DNA from: Squalus acanthias
Taxonomy: Eukaryota
NCBI GenBank assembly: GCA_030390025.1
Contig: CM059431.1
Location: forward strand, 96,722,001-96,786,000
Direction of reading: 5' to 3'
DNA length: 64,000 bases
Numbering within the stretch: the first letter of the stretch is position 1; every line of letters starts with the position of its first letter. Shown here piece after piece: positions 2,306-53,500 of this stretch. Below the pieces are notes generated by a model. That model saw only the letters and a list, made by a program, of their open reading frames with translations. It had not been told where the DNA came from and made no database searches. The position numbers and the translations under genes are program-made.

Positions 2306-2390
2306 TGCGGAGATGCCGGTGTTGGACTGGGGTGGACAAAAGTGAGAAGTCACACAACACCAGGTTATAGTCCAACAGTTTTATTTGAAA

Positions 2391-2427
2391 TCACGAGCTT
2401 TCGGAACGCTGCTCCTTCATCAGGTAA
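2391..2427 (-). ncRNA. minimal type I hammerhead ribozyme (Penelope pLTR)
   Basis: Minus strand reads UUAC-CUGAUGA-A-GGAGCAGCGUUCC-GAAA-GCUC-GUGA. Confidence 0.75.
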
Positions 2428-3319
2428 AGTGAGGGAATACAAATCAGATACAAAGCATATATAGACAGAGAACAATGTGTTTCTGACTGCCCTCCATCAC
2501 ACCTCGGCAGAGATACAATCAGTCAGGAAGGCATTACATCAAAGACACAGCAAAATACAGCTAAGACAATGAGGTGGGGTCACAGGGGGTCCAACGTGTC
2601 AAATGCTGCAGTCTGCAGTTAAGCTTTTTACTTTTTTTAAAACTGGAAATCACATCTGTGAACAAGACAACGACGACTGGAGTCTGGATGACTCTACGTC
2701 ATGTAGCATGACATGAAACCAAGATCCCGGTTGAGGCCATCCTCATGGGTGCGGAACTTGGCTATCGGTTTCTGCTTGATGATTTTGCGTTGTTGTGTGT
2801 CTCGAAGGCCGCCTTGGAGAGCGCTTACCCGCAGATCCGAGGCTGAATGTCCTTGACTGCTGAAGTGTTCCCCGACTGGGAGGTAACAATCCTGCCTGGC
2901 GATTGTTGCGCAGTGTCCGTTCATACGTTGTCTCAGTGTCTGCATGGTCACACGACAACGCAAAATCATCGAGCAGAAACTGATAGCCAAGTTCCGCACC
3001 CACGAGGACGGCCTCAACCGGGATCTTGGTTTCATGTCACGCTACATGGCGTAGTCATCCAGACTCGAGTCGTCGTTGTCTTGTTCACAGATGTGATTTC
3101 CAGTTTTTAAAAAAAGTAAAAAGCTTAACTGCAGACTGCAGCATTTGACACGTTGGACCCCCTGTGACCCCACCTCATTGTCTTAGCTGTATTTTACTGT
3201 GTCTTTGATGTAATGCCTTCCTGACTGATTGTATCTCTGCCGAGGTGTGATGGAGGGCAGTCAGAAACACATTGTTCTCTGTCTATATATGCTTTGTATC
3301 TGATTTGTATTCCCTCACT

Positions 3320-3356
3320 TTACCTGACGAAGGAGCAGCGCTCCGAAAGCTCGTGA
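3320..3356 (+). ncRNA. minimal type I hammerhead ribozyme (Penelope pLTR)
   Basis: UUAC-CUGACGA-A-GGAGC AGC GCUCC-GAAA-GCUC-GUGA: core, stem II, palindromic AGCU stem III, stem I. Confidence 0.8.
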
Positions 3357-3408
3357 TTTCAAATAAAACTGTTGGACTATAACCTGGTGTTGTGCGACTT
3401 CTCATTTT

Positions 3409-3625
3409 TATTTAAAGATGAGCAGTGGATTTCTCCTGTTTATCTTGGTCAACATTTATCCCTCTACCAACATCTCGCTGCTGTTTTTTGGGATCTTGCT
3501 GTGTGCAAAGTGAATGCTACATTTTCTTACAAAAAAGATAGCGTGCGCTTCAATTAATTGGCTGCTCATCGCTTTGGGACATCCTGAGGATGTGAAAGAT
3601 GCTGAATAAAAGCAAGTTCATCCTT
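3409..3625 (+). mobile_element. Deu-domain SINE 3' part
   Basis: GGGATCTTGCTGTGTGCAAA...CGCTTTGGGACATCCTGAGGATGTGAAAG, matching the 3' half of other SINE copies. Confidence 0.75.
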
Positions 3626-4259
3626 TCTCAGAAAGGACCATTTCTCCCTGATATAATGATCATATAAAATACCATTGGCAACCAAAAAGCTAGTCTGTGT
3701 TTCCCTTACACAAAACACAGTGCAGGGTTTTAAGCACAGAATCTGTTTACTTTGCCAGCTGCAATACAACTTTTCAGCTGTCACTTATTTCAAAAAGATA
3801 TAAATTATGGTATCTGCTGGTGACGGACTAAAGGATGTGTTGCAGGGAGTTCTGGAATTATGCACCAATAGCATTCATTGCACATTTTGGAAAGAGGTTA
3901 CTGTAGATTTTCTTTATTCAAAGTTACTTTATTACTGAGTTTTAGCCACTAACCCCACCAATAACTTCTTACAGACATCGCCTCCTTTTCAACTCTCACT
4001 TCATCAGATCGCTGCACACATTCAGATTAAAAAGGGGAAGTTCACAGTAGGAATTCCTGCAGTTTCTCACACTGCTGACCGACAGAATCCACACATTCTG
4101 TGGGAAAGTTGATCAGAATGGAAAATGGACAGGCAAAAACTCCTTTCAGAGAAGTTGATTATTGTTTAATATACAATTTGTGTCACATTTACTGGGGCAG
4201 AACAGGAGGCTCCGAGAGTGCGGCAACTCATTGGTGTGGGAAAGACTGACTATGAAATA

Positions 4260-4353
4260 TACACTTCACCTGAGGAAGGGGTGTAAGCTCCGAAAGCTTG
4301 TGATTTCAAATAAAACTGTTGGACTATAACCTGGTGTTGTGCGACTTCTCATT
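4260..4353 (+). mobile_element. solo Penelope pLTR fragment containing a hammerhead (4265-4303)
   Basis: UCAC-CUGAGGA-AGGGG..CUCC-GAAA-GCUU-GUGA followed by the pLTR end; flanked by TATGAAATA at 4251-4259 and 4354-4362. Confidence 0.8.
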
Positions 4354-4719
4354 TATGAAATAAGATTATTCACTCAATATTGACCAACAGTCACTAACAT
4401 GAGGTGAGATTCTTCACTGCTTTTCATCCAAGGCTCAATTTACAAAAAAACAGAATCCTACCAATTCACAAGCTTTAAAGGATCACCAATAATTACAAGA
4501 TTGCGCAGGAATATTTTCTTTCCAACGCCCTTATCAAAAACTACACACAAGACTCGACGAAGCTGTGCCTTGTGCAAAGTGTAAACAACAAGCCGTTGGC
4601 ACCGAGCCAGTTGCCCCATTTCACACCTTTCACAGTCGCCCAGAGACGCGGGCAGGAACATCGCTAAATCACCTCAGCCTCTCAACAAGTTTCAACACGG
4701 GAAGAAGTTCAACGAGAAA

Positions 4720-5420: not shown

Positions 5421-5589
5421 CTTGCTGTCTCAGAAGGGCAAGACTGATGTCACACATGTTTTGGGCCAGCATTTACTGCAGAGTTGCACCTGTTTACAGC
5501 ACAGGAACAGGCCATTCGGCCCTACTGGTCCGTGCTGGTGTTTCTGCTCCACACCAGCCTCCTCTCACCCCTCTTCCTTTCACCCTATC

Positions 5590-5793
5590 GTGCGGAGATG
5601 CCGGCGTTGGACTGGGGTGGACAAAAGTGAGAAGTCGCACAACACCAGGCTATAGTCCAACAGTTTTATTTGAAATCACAAGCTTTCGGAGCTGCTGCCC
5701 CTTCACCTGACGAAGGGGCAGCAGCTCCGAAAGCTTGTGATTTCAAATAAAACTGTTGGACTATAACCTGGTGTTGTGCGACTTCTCACTTTT
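5590..5793. mobile_element. Penelope pLTR-only fold-back insertion with hammerhead (5703-5740, +)
   Basis: ~80-bp near-perfect inverted arms; 12-bp TSD TTTCACCCTATC at 5578-5589 and 5794-5805; inserted in a CR1-type 3' fragment. Confidence 0.9.
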
Positions 5794-7044
5794 TTTCACC
5801 CTATCAGCATATCCTTCTATTCCTTTCTCCCTCATGTGCTTATCTCGCTTCCCCTGTCGCCGGCATTGGAATAATATTGGTGTCAGTTTGGCTCAGTGGA
5901 TAGCACTGTTTAATTTCCGTACAGCTTTGCACTGGAACTTGCTGTCAGTGGGAGACAGAAACAGTGCAACGCCCTCTACAGGGCAAGCAACCGAGTCTCT
6001 CCTTAACCAATCAGATTGAAGAATCATTAACGAGCAGCGCAATCTGAACCAGGAAGTGTTGGAATCGTGAATTCAATGTCAAATCAGGCACAGAAAGCAA
6101 AGTAAAGAAAGATGGGATTTAGAGAGATTAAAGAGGCAGGAATTTTTTTAAATAAAAATATTCCTTTTTTATTTTTTGAAATCTCCAACAATAATTAAAA
6201 TCTGTAACATTCACTGTTCTATATCAGATATTCTCTCATGTTTAAGCATTACCATTCAATCTTATAAGTGGACTTTGTGTCCGCTATGACCCGGAGTGCG
6301 CCTTTACACCTTTACTTCCCAATGTCTAGTAAACGATAGCATGACCTTGGGATCGCAACATAGGCCTCTGCTGCATGTACTGGATACTATGATCACACAT
6401 GTACCACCACTTGTTCTCTCCTGTCTTTACAGAAGTTGGACTAAAAAGCACACTCGTGAGATGAGGTATTATAAACCAACAAACTGATTTAAAATGAAAT
6501 ATATATTCAGTGTGAGTTTCAATTCCCTACTACTCTTCATTCCATAAAAAGAAATCAAATATGCAACTCTACCGCTGCTCTTACCAAAACTCATTTTCAA
6601 GCTAACTGCTACTGTCTTTAGGGTAGAAAGAGTGTGGATTCACATCACTGCTATTTTAGAGCCTTTATGTGTCTCTGACTGATTCACACTGACCCTCTTT
6701 CTCTCTACAGCAACACTAATTGCTGTAAACCAAAACATTCTCTCTCCGGGATGTTTACAGTGTTGTTATTGTGGTTTTTTAAAATTTCAGCCAATCAAAA
6801 AGTATGACACCAGGACGTGTTACCACATCATAATGCAGAATTTGTGATTCCAAAGCACCATGGACAGGAATTATTGTACTATTTTTTAATATATGAACAG
6901 TGAATCTCCAGTAGTATTGATCATGGAAAGTTGTTAGACTCTGGGGCAGAGCTTTGTCTTCATTCCCTGGGCTGTAATCTGATGAGTGGATTGGCTGTCT
7001 GTAATAGAACCTGCATGATTTTGAAGGAATGAGCGGTCGCACAA

Positions 7045-11612: not shown

Positions 11613-14545
11613 CCGCTACAGAAAACAATAATAAGAATAAAACCGGCCGGACCACCCAGCATCGACCTCGGCACCAACTTCAGACACGACAACGGCACAC
11701 CCAGCCCAGTCGACCCTGCAAAGTCCTCCTCACTAACATCTGGGGACTTGTGTCAAAATTGGGAGAGCTGTCACACAGACGAGTCAAGCAACAGCCTGAC
11801 ATAGTCATACTCACAAAATCATACCTTTCAGCCAATGTCCCAGACTCCGTCATCACCATCCCTGGGTATGTCCTGTCCCACCGGCAGGAGAGACCCACCA
11901 GGGGTGGTGGCACAATGGTATACAGTCGGGAGGGCGTGGCCCTGGGAGTCCTCAACATTGACTCCGGACCCCATGAAGTCTCATGGCTTCAGGTCAAGCA
12001 TGGGCAAGGAAACCTCCTGCTGATTACCACCTACCGCCCTCCCCCAGCTGATGAATCTGTACTCCTCCATGTTGAACACCACTTGGAAGAAGCACTGAGA
12101 GTAGCAAGGGCACAGAATGTACTCTGGGTGGGGGACTTCAATATTCATCACCAAGAGTGGACCGAGCTGGCTGAGTCCTGAAGGACATAGCTGCCAGACT
12201 GGGCCTGTGGCAGGTGAAGAGAGAACCAACATGAGGGAAAAGCTGACTTGACCTCGTCCTCACCAATCTACCTGTCACAGATGCATCTGCCCATGACAGC
12301 ATTGGTAGCAGTGACCACCGCACAGTCATTGTGGAGACATAGACCCGTCTTCGCACTGAGGACACCCTCCATCGTGTTGTGTGGCACTACCACCATGCTA
12401 AATGGGACAGATTCAGAACAGATCTAGTAGCTCAAAACAGGGCATCCATGAGGCGCTGCGGGCCATCAGCAGCAGCAGAATTGTATTCCAACACAATCTG
12501 TAACCTCATGGCCCGGCATATGCTTCACTCTACCATTACCATCAAGTCAGGGGACCAACCCTGGTTCAATGAGGAGTGCAGAAGAGCATGCCAGGAGCAG
12601 CACCAGGTGTACCTAAAAATGAGGTGCCAACCTGTGGTAGCTACAACTCAGGACTACGTGCATGCTAAACAGCGAAAGCAGCATGCTATAGACAGAGCTA
12701 AGCGATACCACAATCAATGGATCAGTTCAAAGCTCTGCAGTCCTGCCACATCCAGTCGTGAATGGTGGTGGACAATTAAGCAACTAACCGGAGGAGGAGG
12801 CTCCATGAATATCCCCATCCACAATGATGGCGGAGCCCAGCACGTGAGTGCAAAAGACAAGGCTGAAGTGTTTGCAACCACCTTCAGCCAGAAGTGCCAA
12901 GTGGATGATTCATATTGGCCTCCTCCTAATGTCTCCACCATCGCAGAAGCCAGTCTTCAGCCAATTCAATTCTCTCCACGTGATATCAAGAAATGGCTGA
13001 GCGCACTGGATACAGCAAAGGCTATGGGCCCCGACAACATCCCGGCTATCGTGCTGAAGACTTGTGCTCCAGAAATAGCCGTGCCTCTAGCCAAGCTGTT
13101 CCAGTACAGCTACAACACTGGCATCTACCTGACAATGTGGAAAACTGCCCAAATATGTCCTGTTCCCAAAAAGTAGGACAAATTCAATCCGGCCAATTAC
13201 CACCCCATAAGCCTACTTTTAATCATCAGCAAAGTGATGGAAGGTGTCATCAACAGTGCTGTCAAGCGGCACTTGCTCACCAATAACCTGCTCACCGATG
13301 CTCAGTTTGGACTCCGCCAGACCTCATTTCAGCCTTAGTCCAAACATGGAGAAAAGAGCTGAATTCCAGAGGTGAGGTAAGAGTGACTGCCCTTGACATC
13401 AAGGCAGCATTTGACCGAATGTGGCATCAACTAGCCCTAGTAAAATTGAAGTCAATGGGAATCAGGGGGAAAACTCCCCAATGGCTGGAGTCATACCTAG
13501 CACAAAGGAAGATGGTTGTGGTTGTTGGAGGTCAATCATCTCAGCCTCAGGGCATTGCTGCAGGAGTTCCTCAGGGCAGTGTCCTGGGACCAACCATCTT
13601 CAGCTGCTTCATCAATGAATTTTCCTCCATCATAAGGTCAGAAATGGGGATGTTCGCTGATGATTGCACAGTGTTCAGTTCTATTTGAAACTCCCCAGAT
13701 AATGAAGCAGTCCATGCCTGCATGTAACAAGACCTGGACAACATTCAGACTTGGGCTGATAAGTGGCAAGTAACATTCGCGCCACACAAGTGCCAGGCAA
13801 TGACTACCTCCAACAAGCGAGAGTCCAACCACCGCCCCTTGACATTCAACGGCATAAACATTACCGAATCCCCCACCATCAACATCGTGGAGGCCACCAT
13901 TGACCAGAAATTTAACTGAACCAGCCACATAAATACTGTGGCTACAAAAGCAGGTCAGAGGCCGGGTATGCTGTGGCGAGTGTCTCACCTCCTGACTCCC
14001 CAAAGCCTTTCCACCATCTACAAGGCACAAGTCAGGAGTGTGATGGAATACTCTCCACTTGCCTGGATGAGTGCAGCTCCAACAACGCTCAAGAAGCTCG
14101 ACACCATCCAGGAGAAAGCAGCCCACTTGCTTGGCACCCCATCCACCACTTTAAACATTCACTCCCTCCACCACCGGTGCACCGTGTACCATCTACAAGA
14201 TGCATTGCAGCAACTCGCCAAGGCTTCTTCAGCAGCACCTCCCAAACCCGTGACCTCTACCACCTAGAAGTACAAGGACAGCAGGCGCATGGGAAAACCA
14301 TCACCTGCAAGTTCCTCTCTAAGTTACACACCATCCTGACTTGGAAATATATCGCCGTTTGTTCATCGTCGCTGGGTCAAAATCCTGGAACTCCCTCCTT
14401 AACAGCACTGTGGGAGTACCTTCACCACACAACTGCAGTGGTTCAAGAAGGCCGCTCACCATCACCTTCTCAAGGGCAATTAGGGATGGGCAATAAATGC
14501 TGGCCTTGCCAGTGATGCCCACATCCCAGGAATGAATTTAAAAAA
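11613..14545 (+). mobile_element. CR1/L2-group APE-RT LINE, near full length, degenerate; inserted in an L2 fragment (11571-11612 and 14546-14995)
   Basis: APE motifs (PDIVILT, GDFN) and RT motifs ([21 protein letters not shown]) with several stops. Confidence 0.9.
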
Positions 14546-22048: not shown

Positions 22049-22922
22049 AGATCCAATTTCTTGCAATGATTAACTGGGAAAAGAAGAGATTGCTGCGTAG
22101 TCTGTACATGGCAGTATTTCACAAGGGAATGTCTGCAGACACCTGGGTGAAAACACATGGTGAAACAGTTTTTTTTTATTAGTTTATGGGATCAGGGCGT
22201 CGCTGGCAATGCCAGCATTTATTACCCATCCCTAGTTGCTCTTGAGAAGGTGGTGGTGAGCTGCCTTCTTGAACCACTGCAGTCCGTGTGGTGATGGTAC
22301 TCCCACAGTGCTGTTAGGTAGGGAGTTCCAGGATTTTGACCCAGCGACGATGAAGGATCGGCGATATACTTCTAAGTCAGGATGGTGTGTGACTTTGAGG
22401 GGAACTTGGAGGTGGTGGTGTTCCCATGCGCCTGCTGCCCTTGTCCTTCTAGGTGGAAGAGGTCGCGGGTTTGGGAGTTGCTGCCGAAGAAGCCTTGGCG
22501 AGTTGCTGCAGTGCATCTTGTAGATGGTGCACACTGCAGCCACGGTACGCCAGTGGTGGAGGGAGTGAATGTTTAAGGTGGTGGATGGGGTGCCAATCAA
22601 GCGGGCTGCTTTGTCCTGGATGGTGTCGAGCTTCTTGAGTGTTGTTGGAGCTGCACTCATCCAGGCAAGTGGAGAGTATTCCATCACACTCCTGACTTGT
22701 GCCTTGTAGATGGTGGAAAGGCTTTGGGGAGTCAGGAGGTGAGACACTTGCCGCAGAATACCTTGCCTCTGACCTGCTCTTGTTGCCATAGTATTTATGT
22801 GGCTGGTCCAGTTAAGTTTCTGGTCAATGGTGACCCCCAGGATGTTGATAGTGGGGGATTCGGCAATGGTAATGCCATTGAATGTCAAGGGGAGGTGGTT
22901 AGACTCTCGCTTGTTGGAAATA

Positions 22923-23127
22923 TGATGTGGAGATGCCAGTGTTGGACTGGGGTGGACAAATGTGAGAAGTCGCACGACACCAGGTTATAGTCCAACAGCT
23001 TTATTTGAAATCTCAAGCTTTCGGAGCGCTGCTCCTTCGTCACCTGACGAAGGAGCAGCGCTCCGAAAGCTTGTGATTTCAAATAAAGCTGTTGGACTAT
23101 AACCTGGTGTTGTGCGACTTCTCACAT
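22923..23127. mobile_element. Penelope pLTR-only fold-back insertion with hammerhead (23040-23076, +)
   Basis: ~95-bp inverted arms with a 2-nt loop; 12-bp TSD TTGTTGGAAATA at 22911-22922 and 23128-23139. Confidence 0.9.
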
Positions 23128-23582
23128 TTGTTGGAAATAGGCATTGCCTGGCACTTCTGTAGCGCGAATGTTACCTGCCACTTATCAGCCCAAGCGTGAA
23201 CGTCGTCCAGGTCTTGTTGCATGCGGGCATGGACTGCTTCATTATCTGTGGAGTTGTGAATGGCGCTGAACACTGTGCAGTCATCAGCGAACATCCCCAT
23301 TTCTGACCTTATGTTGGAGGGAAGGTCATTGATGAAGCAGCTGAAGATGGTTGGGCCTAGGCTACTGCCCTGAGAAACTCCTGTAGCGATGTCCTGGGGC
23401 TGTGATGATTGACCTTCAATCACCACAACCATCTTCCTTTGTGCTAGGTATGAATCCAGCCAGTGGAGCGTTTTCCCCCTGATTCCCATTGACTTCAGTT
23501 TTACTAGGGCTCCTTGATGCCAGACTCGGTTAAATGCTGACTTGATGTCAAGGGTAGTCACTCTCACCTCACCTCTGGTGTC

Positions 23583-25641: not shown

Positions 25642-27814
25642 GGGAGCCGAGTGGTCTTGGCGGAACCCAAACTGGGCATCAGTGAGTAGGTTATTGGTGA
25701 GTAAGTGCCACTTGATAGCACTGTCGATGACACCTTCCATCACTTTGCTGATGATTGAGAGTAGACTGATGGGGCGGTAATTGGCCGGGTTGGATTTGTC
25801 CTGCTTTTTGTGGACAGGACATACCTGGGCAGTTTTCCACATTGTCGGATAGATGCCAGTGTTGTAGCTGTACTGGAACAGCTTGGCTAGAGGCGCGGCT
25901 AGTTCTGGAGCACAAGTCTTCAGCACGATAGCCGGGATGTTGTCGGGGCCCATAGCCTTTGCTGTATCCAGTGTGCTCAGACGTTTCTTGATATCACGTG
26001 GAGTGAATCGAATTGGCTGAAGACTGGCTTCTGTGATGGTGGCGACCTCGGGAGTAGGCCGATATGGATCATCCACTCGGCACTTCTGGCTGAAGTTTGT
26101 TGCAAACGCTTCAGCCTTGTCTTTTGCACTCACGTGCTGGGCTCCACCACCATTGAGGATGGGGATATTCTTGGAGCCTCCACCTCCCGTTAGTTGTTTA
26201 ATGGTCCACTACCATTCACGACTGGATGTGGCAGGACTGCAGAGCTTTGATCTGATCCGTTGATTGTGGGATTGCTTAGCCCTGTCTATAGCATGCTGCT
26301 TCCGCTTTTTAGCATGCATGTAGTCCTGTGTTGCAGCTTCCCCAGGTTGGCACCTCATTTTTAGGTACACCTGGTGCTGCTCCTGGCATGCTCTTCTACA
26401 CTTGTCGTTGAACCAGGGTTGGTCCCCTGGCTTGGTGGTAATGGTAGAGTGAGGGATATGCCGGGCCATGAGGTTACAGATTGTGGTGGAATACAATTCT
26501 GCTGCTGCTGATGGCCCACAACGCCTCATGGATGCCCAGTTTTGAGCTGCTAGATCTGTTCTGAATCTATCCCATTTAGCATGGTGGTAGTGCCACACAA
26601 CACGATGGAGGGTGTTCTCAGTGTGAAGACGGGACTTTGTCTGCACAATGACTGTGCGGTGGTCACTGCTGCCAATGCTGTCATGGACTATTGCATCTGT
26701 GACAGGTAGATCGGTGAGGACGAGGTCAAGTAGGTTTTTCCCTCGTGTTGGTTCACTCACCATCTGTTGCAGGCCCAGACTGGCAGTTATGTCCTTCAGG
26801 ACTCGGCCAGCTCGGTCAGTAGTGGTGCTACCGAGCCACTCTTGGTGATGGACATTGAAGTCCCCCACCCAGAGTACATTCTGTGTCCTTGCTACTCTCA
26901 GTGCTTCTTCCAAGTGGTGTTCAACATGGAGGAGTACAGATTCATCAGCTGAGGGAGGGCGGTAGGTGGTAATCAGCAGGAGGTTTCCTTGCCCATGCTT
27001 GACCTGAAGCCATGAGACTTCATGGGGTCCGGAGTCAATGTTGAGGACTTCCAGGGCCACTCCTTTCCGACAGTATACCACTGTGCCACCACCCCTTGGA
27101 TGGTGATGGAGGAGTTTGGGACATTGGCTGAAAGGTGTGATTCTGTGAGTATGACTATGTCAGGCTGTTGCTTGACTAGTCTCTAGGACAGCTCTCCCAT
27201 TTTTGGCACAAGTCCCCAGATGTTGGTGAGGAGGACTTTGCAGGGTTGACTGGGCTGTGTGCGCCATTGACGTGTCCATAGCCGGTTTCATTCTTATTAT
27301 TTTGTATCGTAGCGGTTAGTTACAACTGAGTGACTTGCTAGGCCATTTAAGAGTCAACCACATTGCTGAGGGTCTGGAGTCACATATAGGCCAGACCAGG
27401 TAAGGACGGCAGATTTCCTTCCCGAAAGGACATTAGTGAACCAGATGGGTTTTTACAACAATCCGATAGTTTCATGTTTACCATTACTGATACGAGCTTT
27501 TTTATTCCAGAGTTATTTAATTAACTGAATTTAAATTCCCCAGGTGCCATGGTGGGATTTGAACTCACAGTCTCTGGATCATTAGTCCAGGCCTCTGGAT
27601 TATTAGCCCAGTGACATTACCACTACGCTACTGTTGCAGCATATTTAAATCTCATGATGAAATTGCTGCATTAGATGCTCAGTGCAGACAGCCAGAGGCA
27701 AAGGACTGCTACCAGTGGAGGAATGGTCAGCGGCGGCACAACCCTCAGTGGGCAGGTGGAAACTCGGCAAACCCTGGGCACCACCAGTGCAGAACCAGGG
27801 TACCAGAGCTCGAC

Positions 27815-30471: not shown

Positions 30472-32776
30472 TTTTTTTTATTCGCTTATGGGATCTGGGC
30501 GTGGCTGGCAAAGCCAGCATTTATTGCCCATCCCTAGTTGCCCTTGAGAAGGTGGTGGTGAGCCGTCGCCTTGAACCGCTGCAGTCCGTGTGGTGAAGGT
30601 ACTCCCACAGTGCGGTTAGGGAGGGAGTTCCAGGATTTTGACCCAGCGACGATGAAGGATCGGCGATATACTTCTAAGTCAGGATGGTGTGTGACTTGGA
30701 GGGGAACTTGGAGGTGGTGGTGTTCCCATGCGCCTGCTGCCCTTGTCCATCTAGGTGGAAGAGGTCGCGGGTTTGGGAGGTGCTGCCGGAGAAGCCTTGG
30801 CGAGTTGCTGCAGTGCATCTTGTGGATGGTACACACTGCAGCCACAGTACGCCAGTGGTGGAGGGAGTGAATGCTTAAGGTGGTGGATGGGGTGCCAATC
30901 AAATGGGCAGCTTTGTCCTGGATGGTGTCGAGCTTCTTGAGTGTTGTTGCAGCTGCACTCATCCAGGCAAGTGGAGAGTATTCCATCACACTCCTTACTT
31001 GTGCTTTGTAGATGGTGGAAAGGCTTTGGGGAGTCAGGAGGTGAGACACTCACCGCAGAATACCTAGCCTCTGACCTGCTCTTGTTGCCACAGTATTTAT
31101 GTGGCTGGCCCAGTTAAGTTTCTGGTCAATGGTGACCCCCAGGATGTTGATGGTGGGGGATTCGGTGATGGTAATGCCGCTGAATGTCAAGGGGAGGTGG
31201 TTAGACTCTCGCTTGTTGGAGATAGTCATTGCCTGGCACTTCTGTGGCGCGAATGTTACCTGCCACTTATCAGCCCAAGCCTGAATGTCGTCCAGGTCTT
31301 GTTGCATGCGGGCATGGACTGCTTCATTATCTGAGGAGTTGTGAATGGTGCTGAACACTGTGCAGACATCAGTGAAAATCCCCATTTCTGACCTTATGTT
31401 GGAGGGAAGGTCATTGATGAAGCAGCTGAAGATGGTTGCGCCTAGGACACTGCCCTGAGGAACTCCTGCAGCGATGTCCTGGGACTGTGATGATTGACCT
31501 TCAATCACCACAACCATCTTCCTTTGTGCTAGGTATGACTCCAGCCAGTGGGGCGTTTTCCCCTTGATTCCCATTGACTTCAGTTTTACTTGGGCTCCTT
31601 GATGCCACACTCGGTCAAATGCAGCCTTGATGTTAAGGGCAGTCATTCTCACCTCACCTCTGCAATTCAGCTCCTTTGTCCATGTTTGGACCAAGGCTGT
31701 AATGAGGTCGGCAGCCGAGTGGTCTTGGCGGAACCCAAACTGGGCATCAGTGAGCAGGTTATTGGTAAGTAAGTGCCGCTTGATAGCACTGTCGATGACA
31801 CCTTCCATCACTTTGCTGATGATTGAGAGTAGACTGATGGGGCGGTAATTGGCCGGGTTGGATTTGTCCTGCTTTTTGTGGACAGGACATACCTGGGCAG
31901 TTTTCCACATTGTCGGATAGATGCCAGTGTTGTAGCTGTACTGGAACAGCTTGGCTAGAGGTGCGGCTAGTTCTGGAGCACAAGTCTTCAGCACGATAGC
32001 CGGGATGTTGTCGGGGCCCATAGCCTTTGCTGTATCCAGTGCGCTCAGCCGTTTCTTGATATCACGTGGAGTGAATCGAATTGGCTGAAGACTGGCTTCT
32101 GTGATGGTGGCGACCTCGGGAGTTGGCTGATATGGATCATCCGCTCGGCACTTCTGGCTGAAGATGGTTGCAAACGCTTCAGCCTTGTCTTTTGCACTCT
32201 TGCTGGGCTCCACCATCATTGAGGATGGGGATATTCATGGAGCCTCCTCCTCCCGTTAGTTGTTTAATGGTCCACCACCATTCACGACTGGATGTGGAAG
32301 GACTGCAGAGCTTTGATCTGATCCGTTGATTGTGGGATTGCTTAGCCCTGTTTATAGCATTCTGCTTCCGCTTTTTAGCATGTATGTAGTCCTGTGTTGT
32401 AGCTTCCCCAGGTTGGCACCTCATTTTTAGGTACGCCTGGTGCTGCTCCTGGCATGCTCTTCTACACTCCTTATTGAACCAAGGTTGGTCCCCTGGCTTG
32501 GTGGTAATGGTAGAGTGAGGGATATGCCGGGCCATGACGTTACAGATTGTGGTGCAATACAATTCTGTTGCTGCTGATGGCCCACAGTGCCTCATGGATG
32601 CCCAGATTTGAGCTGCTAGATCTGTTCTGAATCTATCCCATTTAGCACGGTGGTAGTGCCACACAACACGATGGAGGGTGTCCTCAGTGTGAAGACGGGA
32701 CTTTGTCTCCACAATGACTGTGCGGTGGTCACTGCTGCCAATGCTGTCATGGACTATTGCATCTGCGACAGGTAGA
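30472..32776 (-). mobile_element. CR1/L2-group APE-RT LINE, 5'-truncated, nested in the Vingi-like element
   Basis: 389-aa RT ORF; same family as 22169-27633. Confidence 0.92.
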
Positions 32777-33009
32777 TTGGTCGCAGCAGTTACGACCGCT
32801 CCAGAAGCCCGCTTGCTGTTTAGGAATGGTTGGCTTGATGATGTGGGCTAGTTTGTGGAGTAGCAGCCTCTCCAGCACTTTATAACAAGTGCAAAGTAAG
32901 GAGATCGGGCGGTAGCTGGAGGCTTCACAAGCATTCTTCCCCTGCTTCAGGAGGGCAATTATTTTAGTCTCCCTCCAAATAGCTGGAATTTTACCAGTTG
33001 CGAGTTTAC
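32777..33009 (-). mobile_element. Vingi/Ingi-like LINE, 5' part
   Basis: Minus strand translates SYRPISLLCTCYKVLERL...QQAGF...CCDQ, joining VVALTMHVEAGF at 30471. Confidence 0.75.
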
Positions 33010-35806: not shown

Positions 35807-36025
35807 GTAAGATAAACAGAAAATGCTGGAAACACTCAGCAGGTCAGGCAGCAACTGTGGAGAGAGAAACCGAGTTAACGGAAGAGAAACAGAACCGATG
35901 AAAGGTCATCGACCTGAAACATTTACTCTGTTTCTCTCTCCGTAGATGCTACCTGACCTGCTGAGTATCTCCAGCATTTTCTGTTTATATTTCAGATTTC
36001 CAGCATCTGCAGTATTTTGCCTTCA
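35807..36025. mobile_element. Penelope family-2 fold-back pLTR insertion with degenerate hammerhead
   Basis: Inverted arms; 15-bp TSD AATTAGTAACATACT at 35792-35806 and 36026-36040; core mutated to CCGAUGA. Confidence 0.85.
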
Positions 36026-38179: not shown

Positions 38180-39840
38180 TCATGGAATGATACACTACAG
38201 AAGGAGGCCATTTGGCCCATCGTGCCTCTGCCAGCTCTTGGAAAGAACTTTCCAATTAGTCTCACTCCCCAGCTTTTTCCCCATAGCCCTGCAAATTTTT
38301 CCTTTTCAAATATTCGTCCAATTTTGAAAATTACTATTGAATCTGCTTCCACCACCCTTTCAGGCAGCACATTCCATATCATAACTCATCGCGTAAAAAT
38401 GTTTTCCTCATGTCGCCTCTGGTTCTTGTGCCAATTACCTTACATCTGTGTCCTCTGGTTACTGACCCTTCTGCCACTGGAAACAGTTTCTTTTTTACTC
38501 TATCAAAACCCCTCAAGATTTTGAACACCTCTATCAAATATCCCCTTAACCTTCTCTGCTCTAAGGAGAACAACCCCTGTTTATCTAGTTTCTCCATGTA
38601 ACTGAAGTCTTTCATCCCTGGTACCATTCTAACTAATCTCCTCTGCACCCTCTCTAAGTTCTTGACATCCTAAAATGTGGTGCCCAGAATTGGACACAAT
38701 ACTCCAACTGGGGCCTAGCTAGTGTTTGATAAAGGTTTAGCATAACTTCCTTGCTTTTGTACCTATGTCTCTATTTTTAAAGCCCAGGATCCCGCATGTA
38801 TTTTTAACATTTTTAACAGCCTTCTCAACTTGTCCTGCTACCTTCAAAGATTTGTGTATGTACACCCCCAGGACTCTCTGTTCCTGCACCCCCTTTAAAA
38901 TTGTACCATTTAGTTATTATTACTTTTCCTCGTTCTTCCTACCAAAATGAATCACTTCACACTTCACGGCATTAAATTTCATCTGCCATGTGTCTGCCCA
39001 TTTCACCAGTCTGTCTGTGTCCTCCTGAAGTCTGTTACTATCCTCTTCACTGTTTACTACATTTCCGAGTTTCGTGTCATCTGCAGACTTTGAAATGATG
39101 CCCTGTATACCCAAGTCCAGGTCAATAATATATTATCAAAAAGAGCAGTGATCCTACTACAGGTTGAGCGTCCAAAATCCGGAGTTCTGGAATGATCCGG
39201 ACTCCGGGACGATTGGTGGCCGGTTCATCCGGAATCCGTAAAATGTTCCGGAATCCGGAACTCCGGATTTTGGACGCTCAACATGTACTTCAAAAAGCCA
39301 TTAACTTTTGTCTTTTTTTTGGAAAAATCCTGTGAAAAATGTGAGTGATGCAATAAAACTTTAGTGTTGTATTTTATCCTCCTCAATCTGCACAGCTCCA
39401 CTAAGTGTTTCCGCCAGGCTGCGGCCACGGCATCACGCCGCCCTGGTGGCCTAGTGTGGGCCATCGGATGCTCTGCAGAGCTCGCAGCGTCCCTCCCCTT
39501 TAACAGAAGGGGAGGGGCGGAGAAACGCGTCAGCGCCACGCAGAGCGGCCCAGGCATTTCCGGACTCGGAGCGTGTTTCTGATGTCCGAAGTCCGGAAAC
39601 ACCCGAGCCCAGGTTGCGATATTTCCGGACTTTGGACATCAGAAACACGTTCCGAAGTCCGGAAAAACACGAAAACCGGCTCGGCCTCGGTCCCGAGGTT
39701 GCCAGATTCAGGACGCTCAACCTGTACCGACCCCTGTGAAACACTACTGTATACTTCCCACCAGACTGAAAAACCACTGCTCTCTGCTTTCTGTCCCTTA
39801 GCCAATTTCGTATCCATGCTGCCACTGTCCCTTTAATCCC
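38180..39840 (-). mobile_element. CR1 fragment interrupted by a MITE
   Basis: ISKSADDTKLG and QRRLVRMVPG ORF fragments. Confidence 0.8.
39160..39724. mobile_element. non-autonomous Tc1/mariner-pogo-type MITE
   Basis: TA|CAGGTTGAGCGTCC ... GGACGCTCAACCTG|TA; extra internal TIR ending at 39285. Confidence 0.85.
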
Positions 39841-52516: not shown

Positions 52517-53500
52517 TTTTTAAAATTAGTTTTATGGGATGTGGGCGTTGCTGGCAAGGCCAGCATTTATTGCCCATCCCTAATTGCCCTTGAGAAGGTG
52601 GTGGTGAGCCGCCGCCTTGAACCGCTGCAGTCCGTGTGGTGAAGGTACTCCCACAGTGCTGTTAGGGAGGAAGTTACAGGATTTTGACCCAGCGAGGGGA
52701 ACTTGGAGGTGGTGGTGTTCCCATGCGCCTGCTGCCCTTGTCCTTCTAGATGGAAGAGGTCGCGGGTTTGGGAGGTGCTGCCGAAGAAGCCTTGGCGAGT
52801 TGCTGCAGTGCATCTTGTAGATGGTACACACTGTAGCCACAGTATGCCAGTGGTGGAGGGAGTGAATGTTTAAGGTGGTGGATGGGGTGCCAATTAAGCG
52901 GACTGCTTTGTCCTGGATGAAGTCGAGCTTCTTGAGTGTTGTTGGAGCTGCACTCATCCAGGCAAGTGGAGAGTGTTCCATCACACTCCTTACTTGTGCC
53001 TTGTAGATGATGGAAAGGCTTTGGGGAGTCAGGAGGTGAGACATTTGCCGCAGAATACCTAGCCTCTGACCTGCTCTTGTTGCCACAGTATTTATGTGGC
53101 TGGTCCAGTTAAGTTTCTGGTCAATGCTGACCCCCAGGATATTGATGGTGGGGGATTCGGCAATTGTAATGCCGTTGAATGTCAAGGGGCGGTGGTTAGA
53201 CTCTCGCTTGTTGGAAATAGTCATTGCCTAGCACTTCTGTGGCGCGAATGTTACCTGCCACTTATCAGCCCAAGCCTGAACGTCGTCCAGGTCTTGTTGC
53301 CTGCGGGCATGGACTGCTTCATTATCTGAGGAGTTGTGAATGGCACTGAACATCCCCATTTCTGACTTATGTTGGCGGGAAGGTCATTGATGAAGCAGCT
53401 CAATATGGTTGGGACTAGGACACTGCCCTGAGGAACTCCTGCAGTGATGTCCTGGGGCTGTGATGATTGACCTTCAACCACCACAACCATCTTCCTTTGT
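52517..53500 (-). mobile_element. CR1/L2-group LINE 3' fragment
   Basis: 214-aa ORF nearly identical to the C-terminus of the other family copies. Confidence 0.9.

Follow-up and report, generated by a model that had tools for sequence, protein, structure and literature searches.

Only four insertions, with seven arms, of one Penelope-like element (PLE) were found in the window, that is, the whole 64-kb stretch of DNA analysed here, by BLAST of the longest arm against it; three of them (A, B, and C) are head-to-head fold-backs, and the fourth copy is solo. We propose, at about an even chance of being right, that these are dead-on-arrival insertions for which both nicked target strands primed synthesis, the enzyme ran off at the RNA cap, and the products were joined by microhomology. 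Two target-primed cDNAs annealing by inverted microhomology would then explain the arms, the tail, the target-site duplication (TSD), and the junction together, and the hammerhead ribozyme would be a passenger that was copied uncut, not the cause of the inversion.

Insertions and Target Sites

Positions within the element are numbered on the sense strand, taking as +1 the C that opens CTGA in the hammerhead core (C3). A 27-nt core motif had seven matches in the window, with 0.00 expected. Fold-back A occupies 5590..5793, with a tailed arm at 5590-5704 whose sense lies on the minus strand and a tail-less arm at 5701-5793 whose sense lies on the plus strand. Fold-back B (22923..23131) also has the sense of its tailed arm on the minus strand and that of its tail-less arm (23040-23131) on the plus strand. 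Fold-back C covers 2306-3408 with its inversion at 2949/2950: the tailed arm (2306..2949, minus strand) comprises an endonuclease C-terminus (2700-2948), a 3' UTR, a hammerhead, and the tail, and the tail-less arm (2950..3408, plus strand) comprises the endonuclease end (stop at about 3054) and the 3' UTR and ends at the position called P1 below. The solo copy (4260..4353, plus strand) starts at -10/-8 and also ends at P1.

All four insertions are flanked by TSDs, which the preliminary description had overlooked. The TSD is 12 nt for A (left copy 5578..5589 and right copy 5794..5805, plus strand), 12 nt for B (22911..22922 and 23128-23139, plus strand, inside a multi-copy host repeat, with the final 4 nt of B overlapping the TSD), 13 nt for C (2293-2305 and 3409-3421), and 9 nt for the solo copy (4251-4259 and 4354-4362), the last being read from the flanks with no empty paralogous site to compare. 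A, B, and C are located in multi-copy host repeats, and their TSDs are backed by empty paralogous sites (three for A; three for B, two of which overlap by 12 nt and the third, by alignment, by 8 nt; and a single site for C). Together, the TSDs and the empty sites indicate that each fold-back was a single insertion event. All four TSDs start with T on the P1 side, and their lengths of 9-13 nt are close to one helical turn; the narrow lengths and the T start agree with a dimer nicking AT-rich DNA.

Several other repeats were observed in the window. B was inserted in one copy of a young LINE-like repeat, whose copies (11683-14430, 22170-23578, 25642-27276, 30472-32781, and 52518-53500) are 88-98% identical and carry open frames of 200-390 codons. 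A 33-nt tandem array of at least 10 units at 1806-2267 runs into a SINE-like repeat just upstream of C. The segment 59384-59444 has a tRNA-like head above the Rfam gathering score with the anticodon loop missing and is probably a tRNA-derived SINE. Two hairpins (39166-39279 and 35834-35965) gave weak miRNA-precursor scores and are unrelated to the PLE by BLAST.

Identity of the Element

C holds the final 83 residues of an ORF, the C-terminus of an endonuclease, and no reverse transcriptase (RT) is present in the copies of the window, none of which is full-length. On its own, this 83-residue C-terminus had no Pfam match; when candidate proteins were compared with it, 27 of the 38 passed an E value of 0.001, and every named one was from sharks. 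The closest protein, P0002, is 87% identical to the remnant over its length and contains an RVT_1 domain (E 5e-9) and a VVY..C..C..YIG core. A CX4CxxC linker is found in both P0002 and P0005, as is a pair of cysteines within the GIY-YIG core; the window copies are cut before the linker. A passage of Craig et al. (2021, PMC8557442) gives the CX2-5CxxC motif of the RT-EN linker as diagnostic of Neptune or Nematis as opposed to Penelope/Poseidon. By the linker of the closest homologues, we assign the insertions to an endonuclease-bearing (EN+) PLE of the Neptune/Nematis type. The features found are those of EN+ PLEs, namely, a hammerhead in the pLTR, an inverted 5'-truncated copy with a 30-40 bp tail at one end, and a TSD. 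In the passages on canonical EN+ insertions (PMC8557442; PMC3846280), the same head-to-head inversion, one-end tail, TSD of about 10 bp, hammerhead in the pLTR, and overlap or palindrome at the junction are described, as is TATA plus TCACT in a rotifer pLTR.

Other identities were rejected. Non-LTR retrozymes are defined in the consulted part of the retrozyme preprint by units repeated head to tail, each carrying a type I hammerhead; here, no such tandem was present, and all copies are solo or head-to-head. The miRNA precursors MIR8643 (52.9 of 135 bits) and mir-2208 (31.1 of 70 bits) scored below Rfam gathering as generic hairpin matches. Pattern scans of viral contigs and of prokaryote genomes detected no member of the family, and of two metagenome scans, one gave 0 and the other 2 loci, whose matches span 22 nt only and were taken as chance. 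Among shark gene models (P0004, P0014, P0021, P0028, and P0017), those of XRCC5, FAM210B, FAM174A-like, and FAM204A isoforms end in the endonuclease C-terminus of the element, and a septin 5a gene model opens with the endonuclease plus a translated pLTR and tail. Such fused models represent either exonisation or a gene-model artefact; the septin 5a model shows that the tail is conserved in other sharks too.

Outer Ends and the One-Sided Tail

Tail-less arms end at P1 (+81..+88), and tailed arms end at P2 (+118..+121). Every one of the three fold-backs pairs one P1 arm with one P2 arm (0.125 by chance), and the tailed arm extends further by 32-41 nt; in A, the 33-nt tail (5590..5622, minus strand) lies between P1 at +87 and P2 at +120. 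The preliminary description had the left arm extending about 35 nt further in all three fold-backs; the extension was confirmed, but "left" is meaningless in a head-to-head insertion, and three of three tails on one side would be expected by chance in 1 of 4 cases. At two of the seven outer ends, the element and the target share 4 nt, and two ends carry 2-4 extra T.

To extend these observations beyond the window, contigs of 4 among 24 listed public runs were aligned to the tailed arm of C. At 2302 (+122), 127 (X3), 135 (X1), and 20 (X6) contigs exit into unrelated flanks, and these numbers indicate that P2 is sharp genome-wide. Among the loose-end rows listed (24 of 700), there was no P1 or -7 row; near -7, loose-end coverage is lowered because the reference arm has private stem II changes. 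Contig depth, which is not a copy number and drops in stem II with these private changes, was not used to test the 5' end. Beside the tail end (2296-2305), the loose-end consensus has a few letters common to three runs, and one joint filler holds an ATG in good context, which hints that the ORF starts just after P2.

Two discrete priming positions had been proposed earlier, and both the P1/P2 ends and the sharp tail end in the contigs bear this out; the principle is already published, in that two RT start sites bound the tail in PAc, a Poseidon element of Anolis carolinensis, in the consulted sections of Frangieh et al. (2024, PMC11167929). Those sections describe further features common to PAc and the shark element, including the location of both start sites about 110-120 nt after stem II begins, an AC-rich site, AT-rich targets, priming on both strands, and an uncut ribozyme. 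In PAc, RNA to +172, past the start sites, was required (PMC11167929, same sections), and such sequence is available only at a pLTR-ORF junction. The two elements differ in that PAc belongs to the Poseidon clade with an ORF running from stem II, whereas the closest full protein of the shark element has a Neptune/Nematis-type linker (PAc as in the same sections); an ORF start at stem II was rejected because none of the three frames stays open across the ribozyme region. The 4-nt target overlap at two of seven outer ends is another difference from PAc, and inversions and 5' ends are not treated in the consulted sections of PMC11167929.

The narrower claim, that each strand uses its own priming site, fared less well. 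It is plausible, given that all three fold-backs are mixed (0.125 by chance), but in PAc in vitro both target strands were nicked and extended with no strand preference of the start site (PMC11167929, in the sections on this assay). An inverted copy with a one-sided tail had also been described, in passages of Craig et al. (2021, PMC8557442) and Arkhipova et al. (2013, PMC3846280), in which the tail is explained by endonuclease resolution and the inversion by antisense self-priming; where the junction lies with respect to the ribozyme or an RNA start is not stated in these passages.

Inner Ends and Inversion Junctions

The arms of A begin at -6 and +6 and overlap in CTTC (5701..5704, sense -6..-3 on one arm and +6..+9 on the other), and the arms of B begin at -4 and +2 and overlap in TCA (23040-23042); neither microhomology had been noticed before. 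The solo copy begins at -8, with two further bases preceding the TSD, and the arms of C begin at -374 and -526 from C3, within the endonuclease coding region. Thus, the earlier placement of the breakpoints at the ribozyme edge holds for A and B, two of the three junctions, but not for C, which inverts in the endonuclease gene (2949/2950). The ribozyme 5' edge is reached by three of the four insertions, whose most-upstream ends are -6, -4, and -8. For three of four ends within 7 nt, simulated nulls gave P = 0.027, 0.0035, and 0.0014 under uniform ends over 130, 370, and 610 nt, and P = 0.015-0.0002 under exponential truncation (mean 100-1000 nt), with 4 events and a criterion picked after the data were seen. 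Clustering of the inner ends exceeds chance, on four events and this post hoc criterion.

In the public contigs, three of the seven joints listed were labelled as opposite-strand (+83/-7, +87/+19, and -188/-336). Nine joints with filler letters, for which direction is not given, include one end each at -7, +30 (the predicted cut), and -4; the unlabelled joint 2458->2427 (-35, -4) was excluded from the counts for want of a direction. Place 2430 (= -7) was a joint end in two samples, on opposite strands in X3 and unlabelled in X1, and one loose end inverts at -155, continuing into 20 nt of tail. The junctions are thus spread over many positions, and an end near -7 recurs in two samples; because common palindromic junctions are lost in contig assembly, the read joints give no frequency. 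The tailed arm stops short of its partner in A, B, and three read cases and extends further only in C; being the shorter in five of six gives P = 0.11, where detection is biased to short arms and the outer end of the partner is unseen in reads. Two of the three labelled inversion joints have a tail arm ending at P1 (+83 and +87), which fits, but does not prove, a trailing enzyme or two enzymes on one RNA.

Over about 80 nt, the two arms of an insertion show 1-3 differences and have private variants in common, as against 4-12 differences between arms from separate insertions; the shared private variants indicate that both arms came from one source. This is also compatible with antisense self-priming, a published proposal for palindromic junctions (in the relevant part of Arkhipova et al. 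2013, PMC3846280), in which an antisense strand ending near -7 would fold on CTTC/GAAG or TCA/TGA and be copied, the tail being lost later from one arm. In A and B, the loop indeed reads antisense and closes on a 3-4 bp inverted match. However, the loop-bearing arm of A and B is without the tail and does not contain the tailed arm, and the latter therefore cannot be its simple copy; extra trimming would be needed. C is without a closing stem, sense RNA primes both strands in vitro (PMC11167929, same sections), and the end at -7 would still want a reason. We consider this explanation unlikely.

The shared end could also have been inherited from short non-autonomous masters starting at about -7, instead of being remade each time. 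Non-autonomous PLE derivatives are described in parts of the literature, and in run X1 the pLTR core (2313-2404) is 2-4 times deeper than the endonuclease part, depth not being a copy number. Against such masters, 4-12 of about 80 nt separate A, B, and the solo copy, which also vary in their junctions and carry three versions of stem II; the stem II of B is that of the ORF-bearing C, no tandem array as in retrozymes was seen, and short copies are without the downstream binding region needed in PAc (PMC11167929, same sections). We regard this, too, as unlikely, and slightly more so than self-priming.

The Hammerhead Ribozyme

The hammerhead of A (5703..5740, plus strand) is a minimal type I motif with C3 at 5707 and a predicted cut after 5736, built of a 4-bp stem I, CUGANGA, an extra A, a 5-bp stem II, GAAA, and a palindromic AGCU. 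The corresponding motifs are at 23040-23076 in B (plus strand, C3 at 23044), 4266-4303 in the solo copy (plus strand), and 2391-2427 (minus strand) and 3320-3356 (plus strand) in C. As described previously, TCAC-CTGA opens the plus-strand arm at 5703 and 23040, the solo start at 4260 lies 6 nt before its TCAC, and only one strand of hairpins A and B has a complete hammerhead, the inverted arms being without the sense-strand CTGANGA core. Minimal dimeric type I hammerheads of metazoan PLEs are described in the consulted part of Cervera and de la Pena (2014, PMC4209133), and the shark motif has in common with that set a short helix I, an extra base between 9 and 10.1, G10.1-C11.1, and a palindromic 15.2-16.2, whereas helix II has 5 bp in the predicted shark ribozyme versus 7-8; dual opposite-strand motifs 100-700 bp apart were already reported there. 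In the window, Rfam gave no hammerhead match at E <= 1, only generic hairpin and tRNA matches.

Stems I and II are paired in 45 of 45 cells across five complete motifs, and the core is invariant in all five; the stem changes are four one-sided wobble changes and no two-sided ones, and a shuffle control was uninformative at five-motif depth. This conservation, the two of three junctions at -6..+9, and one read joint at +19, in stem II, accord with the earlier suggestion that pausing of the enzyme on the folded hammerhead leads to a template switch there and hence to the inversion. However, the enzyme meets the 3' entry of the structure (+33) first, yet the ends lie at its 5' exit (+6..-8), after full copying, and the solo copy ends at the same place without inversion. 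In addition, the predicted monomer fold is weak (-9 to -12 kcal/mol), the ends match a TATA/initiator-like pair, and ribozyme mutants of PAc leave insertion size unchanged (PMC11167929, same sections). Template switching at the ribozyme is not supported by these observations, and we consider it improbable. In predicted dimers, the AGCU stem III was not formed as the lowest-energy fold.

Ribozyme cleavage, with or without circularisation, might instead set the end of the template, a model put forward in part of PMC4209133. The intact core in all five complete motifs and one unlabelled joint ending at +30 would suit it, but none of the seven window arms begins at the cut site (+30/+31), all running through it, and in PAc, cleavage was dispensable, uncut RNA was the main template, and no RNA ended at the site (PMC11167929, same sections). 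We hold a role of cleavage to be very improbable. A good antisense splice-donor match (CAG/GTRAAG) was observed exactly at the border of stem I and the core (3318-3326 and equivalents, minus strand) in both stem I variants; as a cause of the ends, a donor at -1/+1 was rejected, since no end falls exactly there.

Promoter-Like and Poly(A)-Like Motifs

Upstream sequence is kept in C, where a TATAWAWR box (3284..3291, plus strand; -40..-33 from C3) precedes an initiator-like TCACTTT (3315..3321, plus strand) with its A at 3317 (-7), the predicted RNA start; the first T of the TATA and the initiator-like A are 33 nt apart, and the TATA of the tailed arm is at 2456-2463 on the minus strand. These motifs were assigned from standard consensus sequences, and the promoter is a predicted one. 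With both strands counted (128 kb), there are 36 TATAWAWR boxes, so that one would fall by chance within seven given positions with a probability of about 0.002; of the five TATA-initiator pairs in the window, two belong to the PLE. A decayed TATA run was found in one of two other subfamily consensus flanks from public contigs. From the TATA and initiator motifs, we infer that the RNA probably begins near -7, just before stem I. AATAAA at +39/+40 and a GU-rich run at +62/+63 (in A, 5746-5751 and 5769-5778, plus strand) both lie before P1 and are the same in all arms; by the usual consensus, they form a candidate poly(A) signal.

The A at -7 might also be a splice branch point (CUCAC), or the template might be processed there, with the enzyme stopping at the branch. 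CTCAC at -7 fits the branch consensus, and an intron of D. virilis terminates at the 5' end of helix I (in part of PMC4209133). However, no AG occurs in -40..-1, so there is no acceptor at helix I, and a splice acceptor there as in D. virilis was rejected; lariat intermediates are, in our judgement, unlikely templates, and the TATA spacing favours an initiator. Splicing is thus a very doubtful cause of this end. In the available accounts, transcription starts in the pLTR in D. virilis Penelope and in Chlamys, and TATA plus TCACT was noted in A. vaga pLTRs (in a passage of Arkhipova et al. 2013, PMC3846280). In D. virilis Penelope, these accounts place the start about 120 nt before helix I, at which the intron ends; the geometry of start and ribozyme is therefore not universal.

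Proposed Two-Strand Priming and Run-Off at the Cap

Under our preferred explanation of two-strand priming and run-off, the enzyme would nick both target strands 9-13 nt apart, as the TSDs and nicking by PAc in vitro suggest. Each 3' overhang would then prime cDNA on the sense RNA, one at P1 and the other at P2, about 35 nt further 3', and priming at both, as in PAc, would yield the one-sided tail seen in the observed ends. For the short copies, priming would take place in the 5' pLTR and the enzyme would run off the capped RNA 5' end; such copies would stop at -8..-4 because of run-off at an RNA start just before stem I. Finally, the two cDNAs would be joined head to head via the short inverted microhomology at their 3' ends (CTTC/GAAG and TCA/TGA at the sequence level). 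Run-off is counted against by C, which inverts far upstream and whose tailed arm is the longer, by the labelled read joints, of which just one in three ends at -7 (the others at +19 and -188/-336), by the loose end inverting at -155 and the unlabelled joint at +30, and by the different geometry of D. virilis. Strand-specific sites are counted against by PAc, which showed no strand preference.

In LINE-1 twin priming, both nicked strands prime, the cDNAs are joined by microhomology, and the TSD is kept. LINE-1, however, primes at the poly(A) and at a random internal site and yields non-overlapping segments, whereas the shark arms derive from two fixed neighbouring sites and overlap almost fully.

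A Possible Strong-Stop Step and Its Significance

Retroviruses and LTR elements have a U3-R-U5 layout and make minus-strand strong-stop DNA, a short run-off product. The order of TATA, start, AATAAA, GU-rich element, and a priming site just downstream is common to the retroviral U3-R-U5 and the shark pLTR; unlike in a retrovirus, the primer would be the nicked chromosome, not a tRNA, and there is no integrase. As a bold extension, which we think rather unlikely, the pLTR might work as a real U3-R-U5 with a retrovirus-like strong-stop transfer. With the poly(A) signal before both priming sites, the mRNA would carry P1 and P2 only near the cap, and the two enzymes of a dimer would prime one RNA at P1 and P2 and run off the cap. 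[quoted passage not shown] If the mRNA ends at the poly(A) signal, long copies such as C would need the jump from the cap to the 3' R; alternatively, read-through of tandem units, the scenario in part of Frangieh et al. (PMC11167929), explains C without a jump. In the literature covered, outside which lie most subscription journals and the 2005-2006 Penelope reviews, the accessible parts contained no published proposal of such a strong-stop step for Penelope and no demonstration of strand transfer for any PLE, and a paper mentioning both Penelope and strong-stop dealt with fungal Copia; in the part of Schostak et al. (2008) concerned, no obvious mechanism beyond tandem formation was seen for pLTR rebuilding.

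The tail and the inversion were already known; what is added is a shark Neptune-type case of a rule established in vitro with a single Poseidon element. The insertions bear on how the whole ORF is copied when priming occurs near the RNA 5' end and on how the pLTR is rebuilt. If true, the strong-stop step would provide one mechanism for pLTR regeneration, for ORF-start sequence at 3' ends, for the tail, and for the inversions. Should the -7 pile-up represent the cap, shark copies in their thousands would form a natural record by which to separate capped linear templates with strand transfer from ribozyme-cut circles and read-through tandems, and this would place an LTR-like step in the sister group of telomerase.
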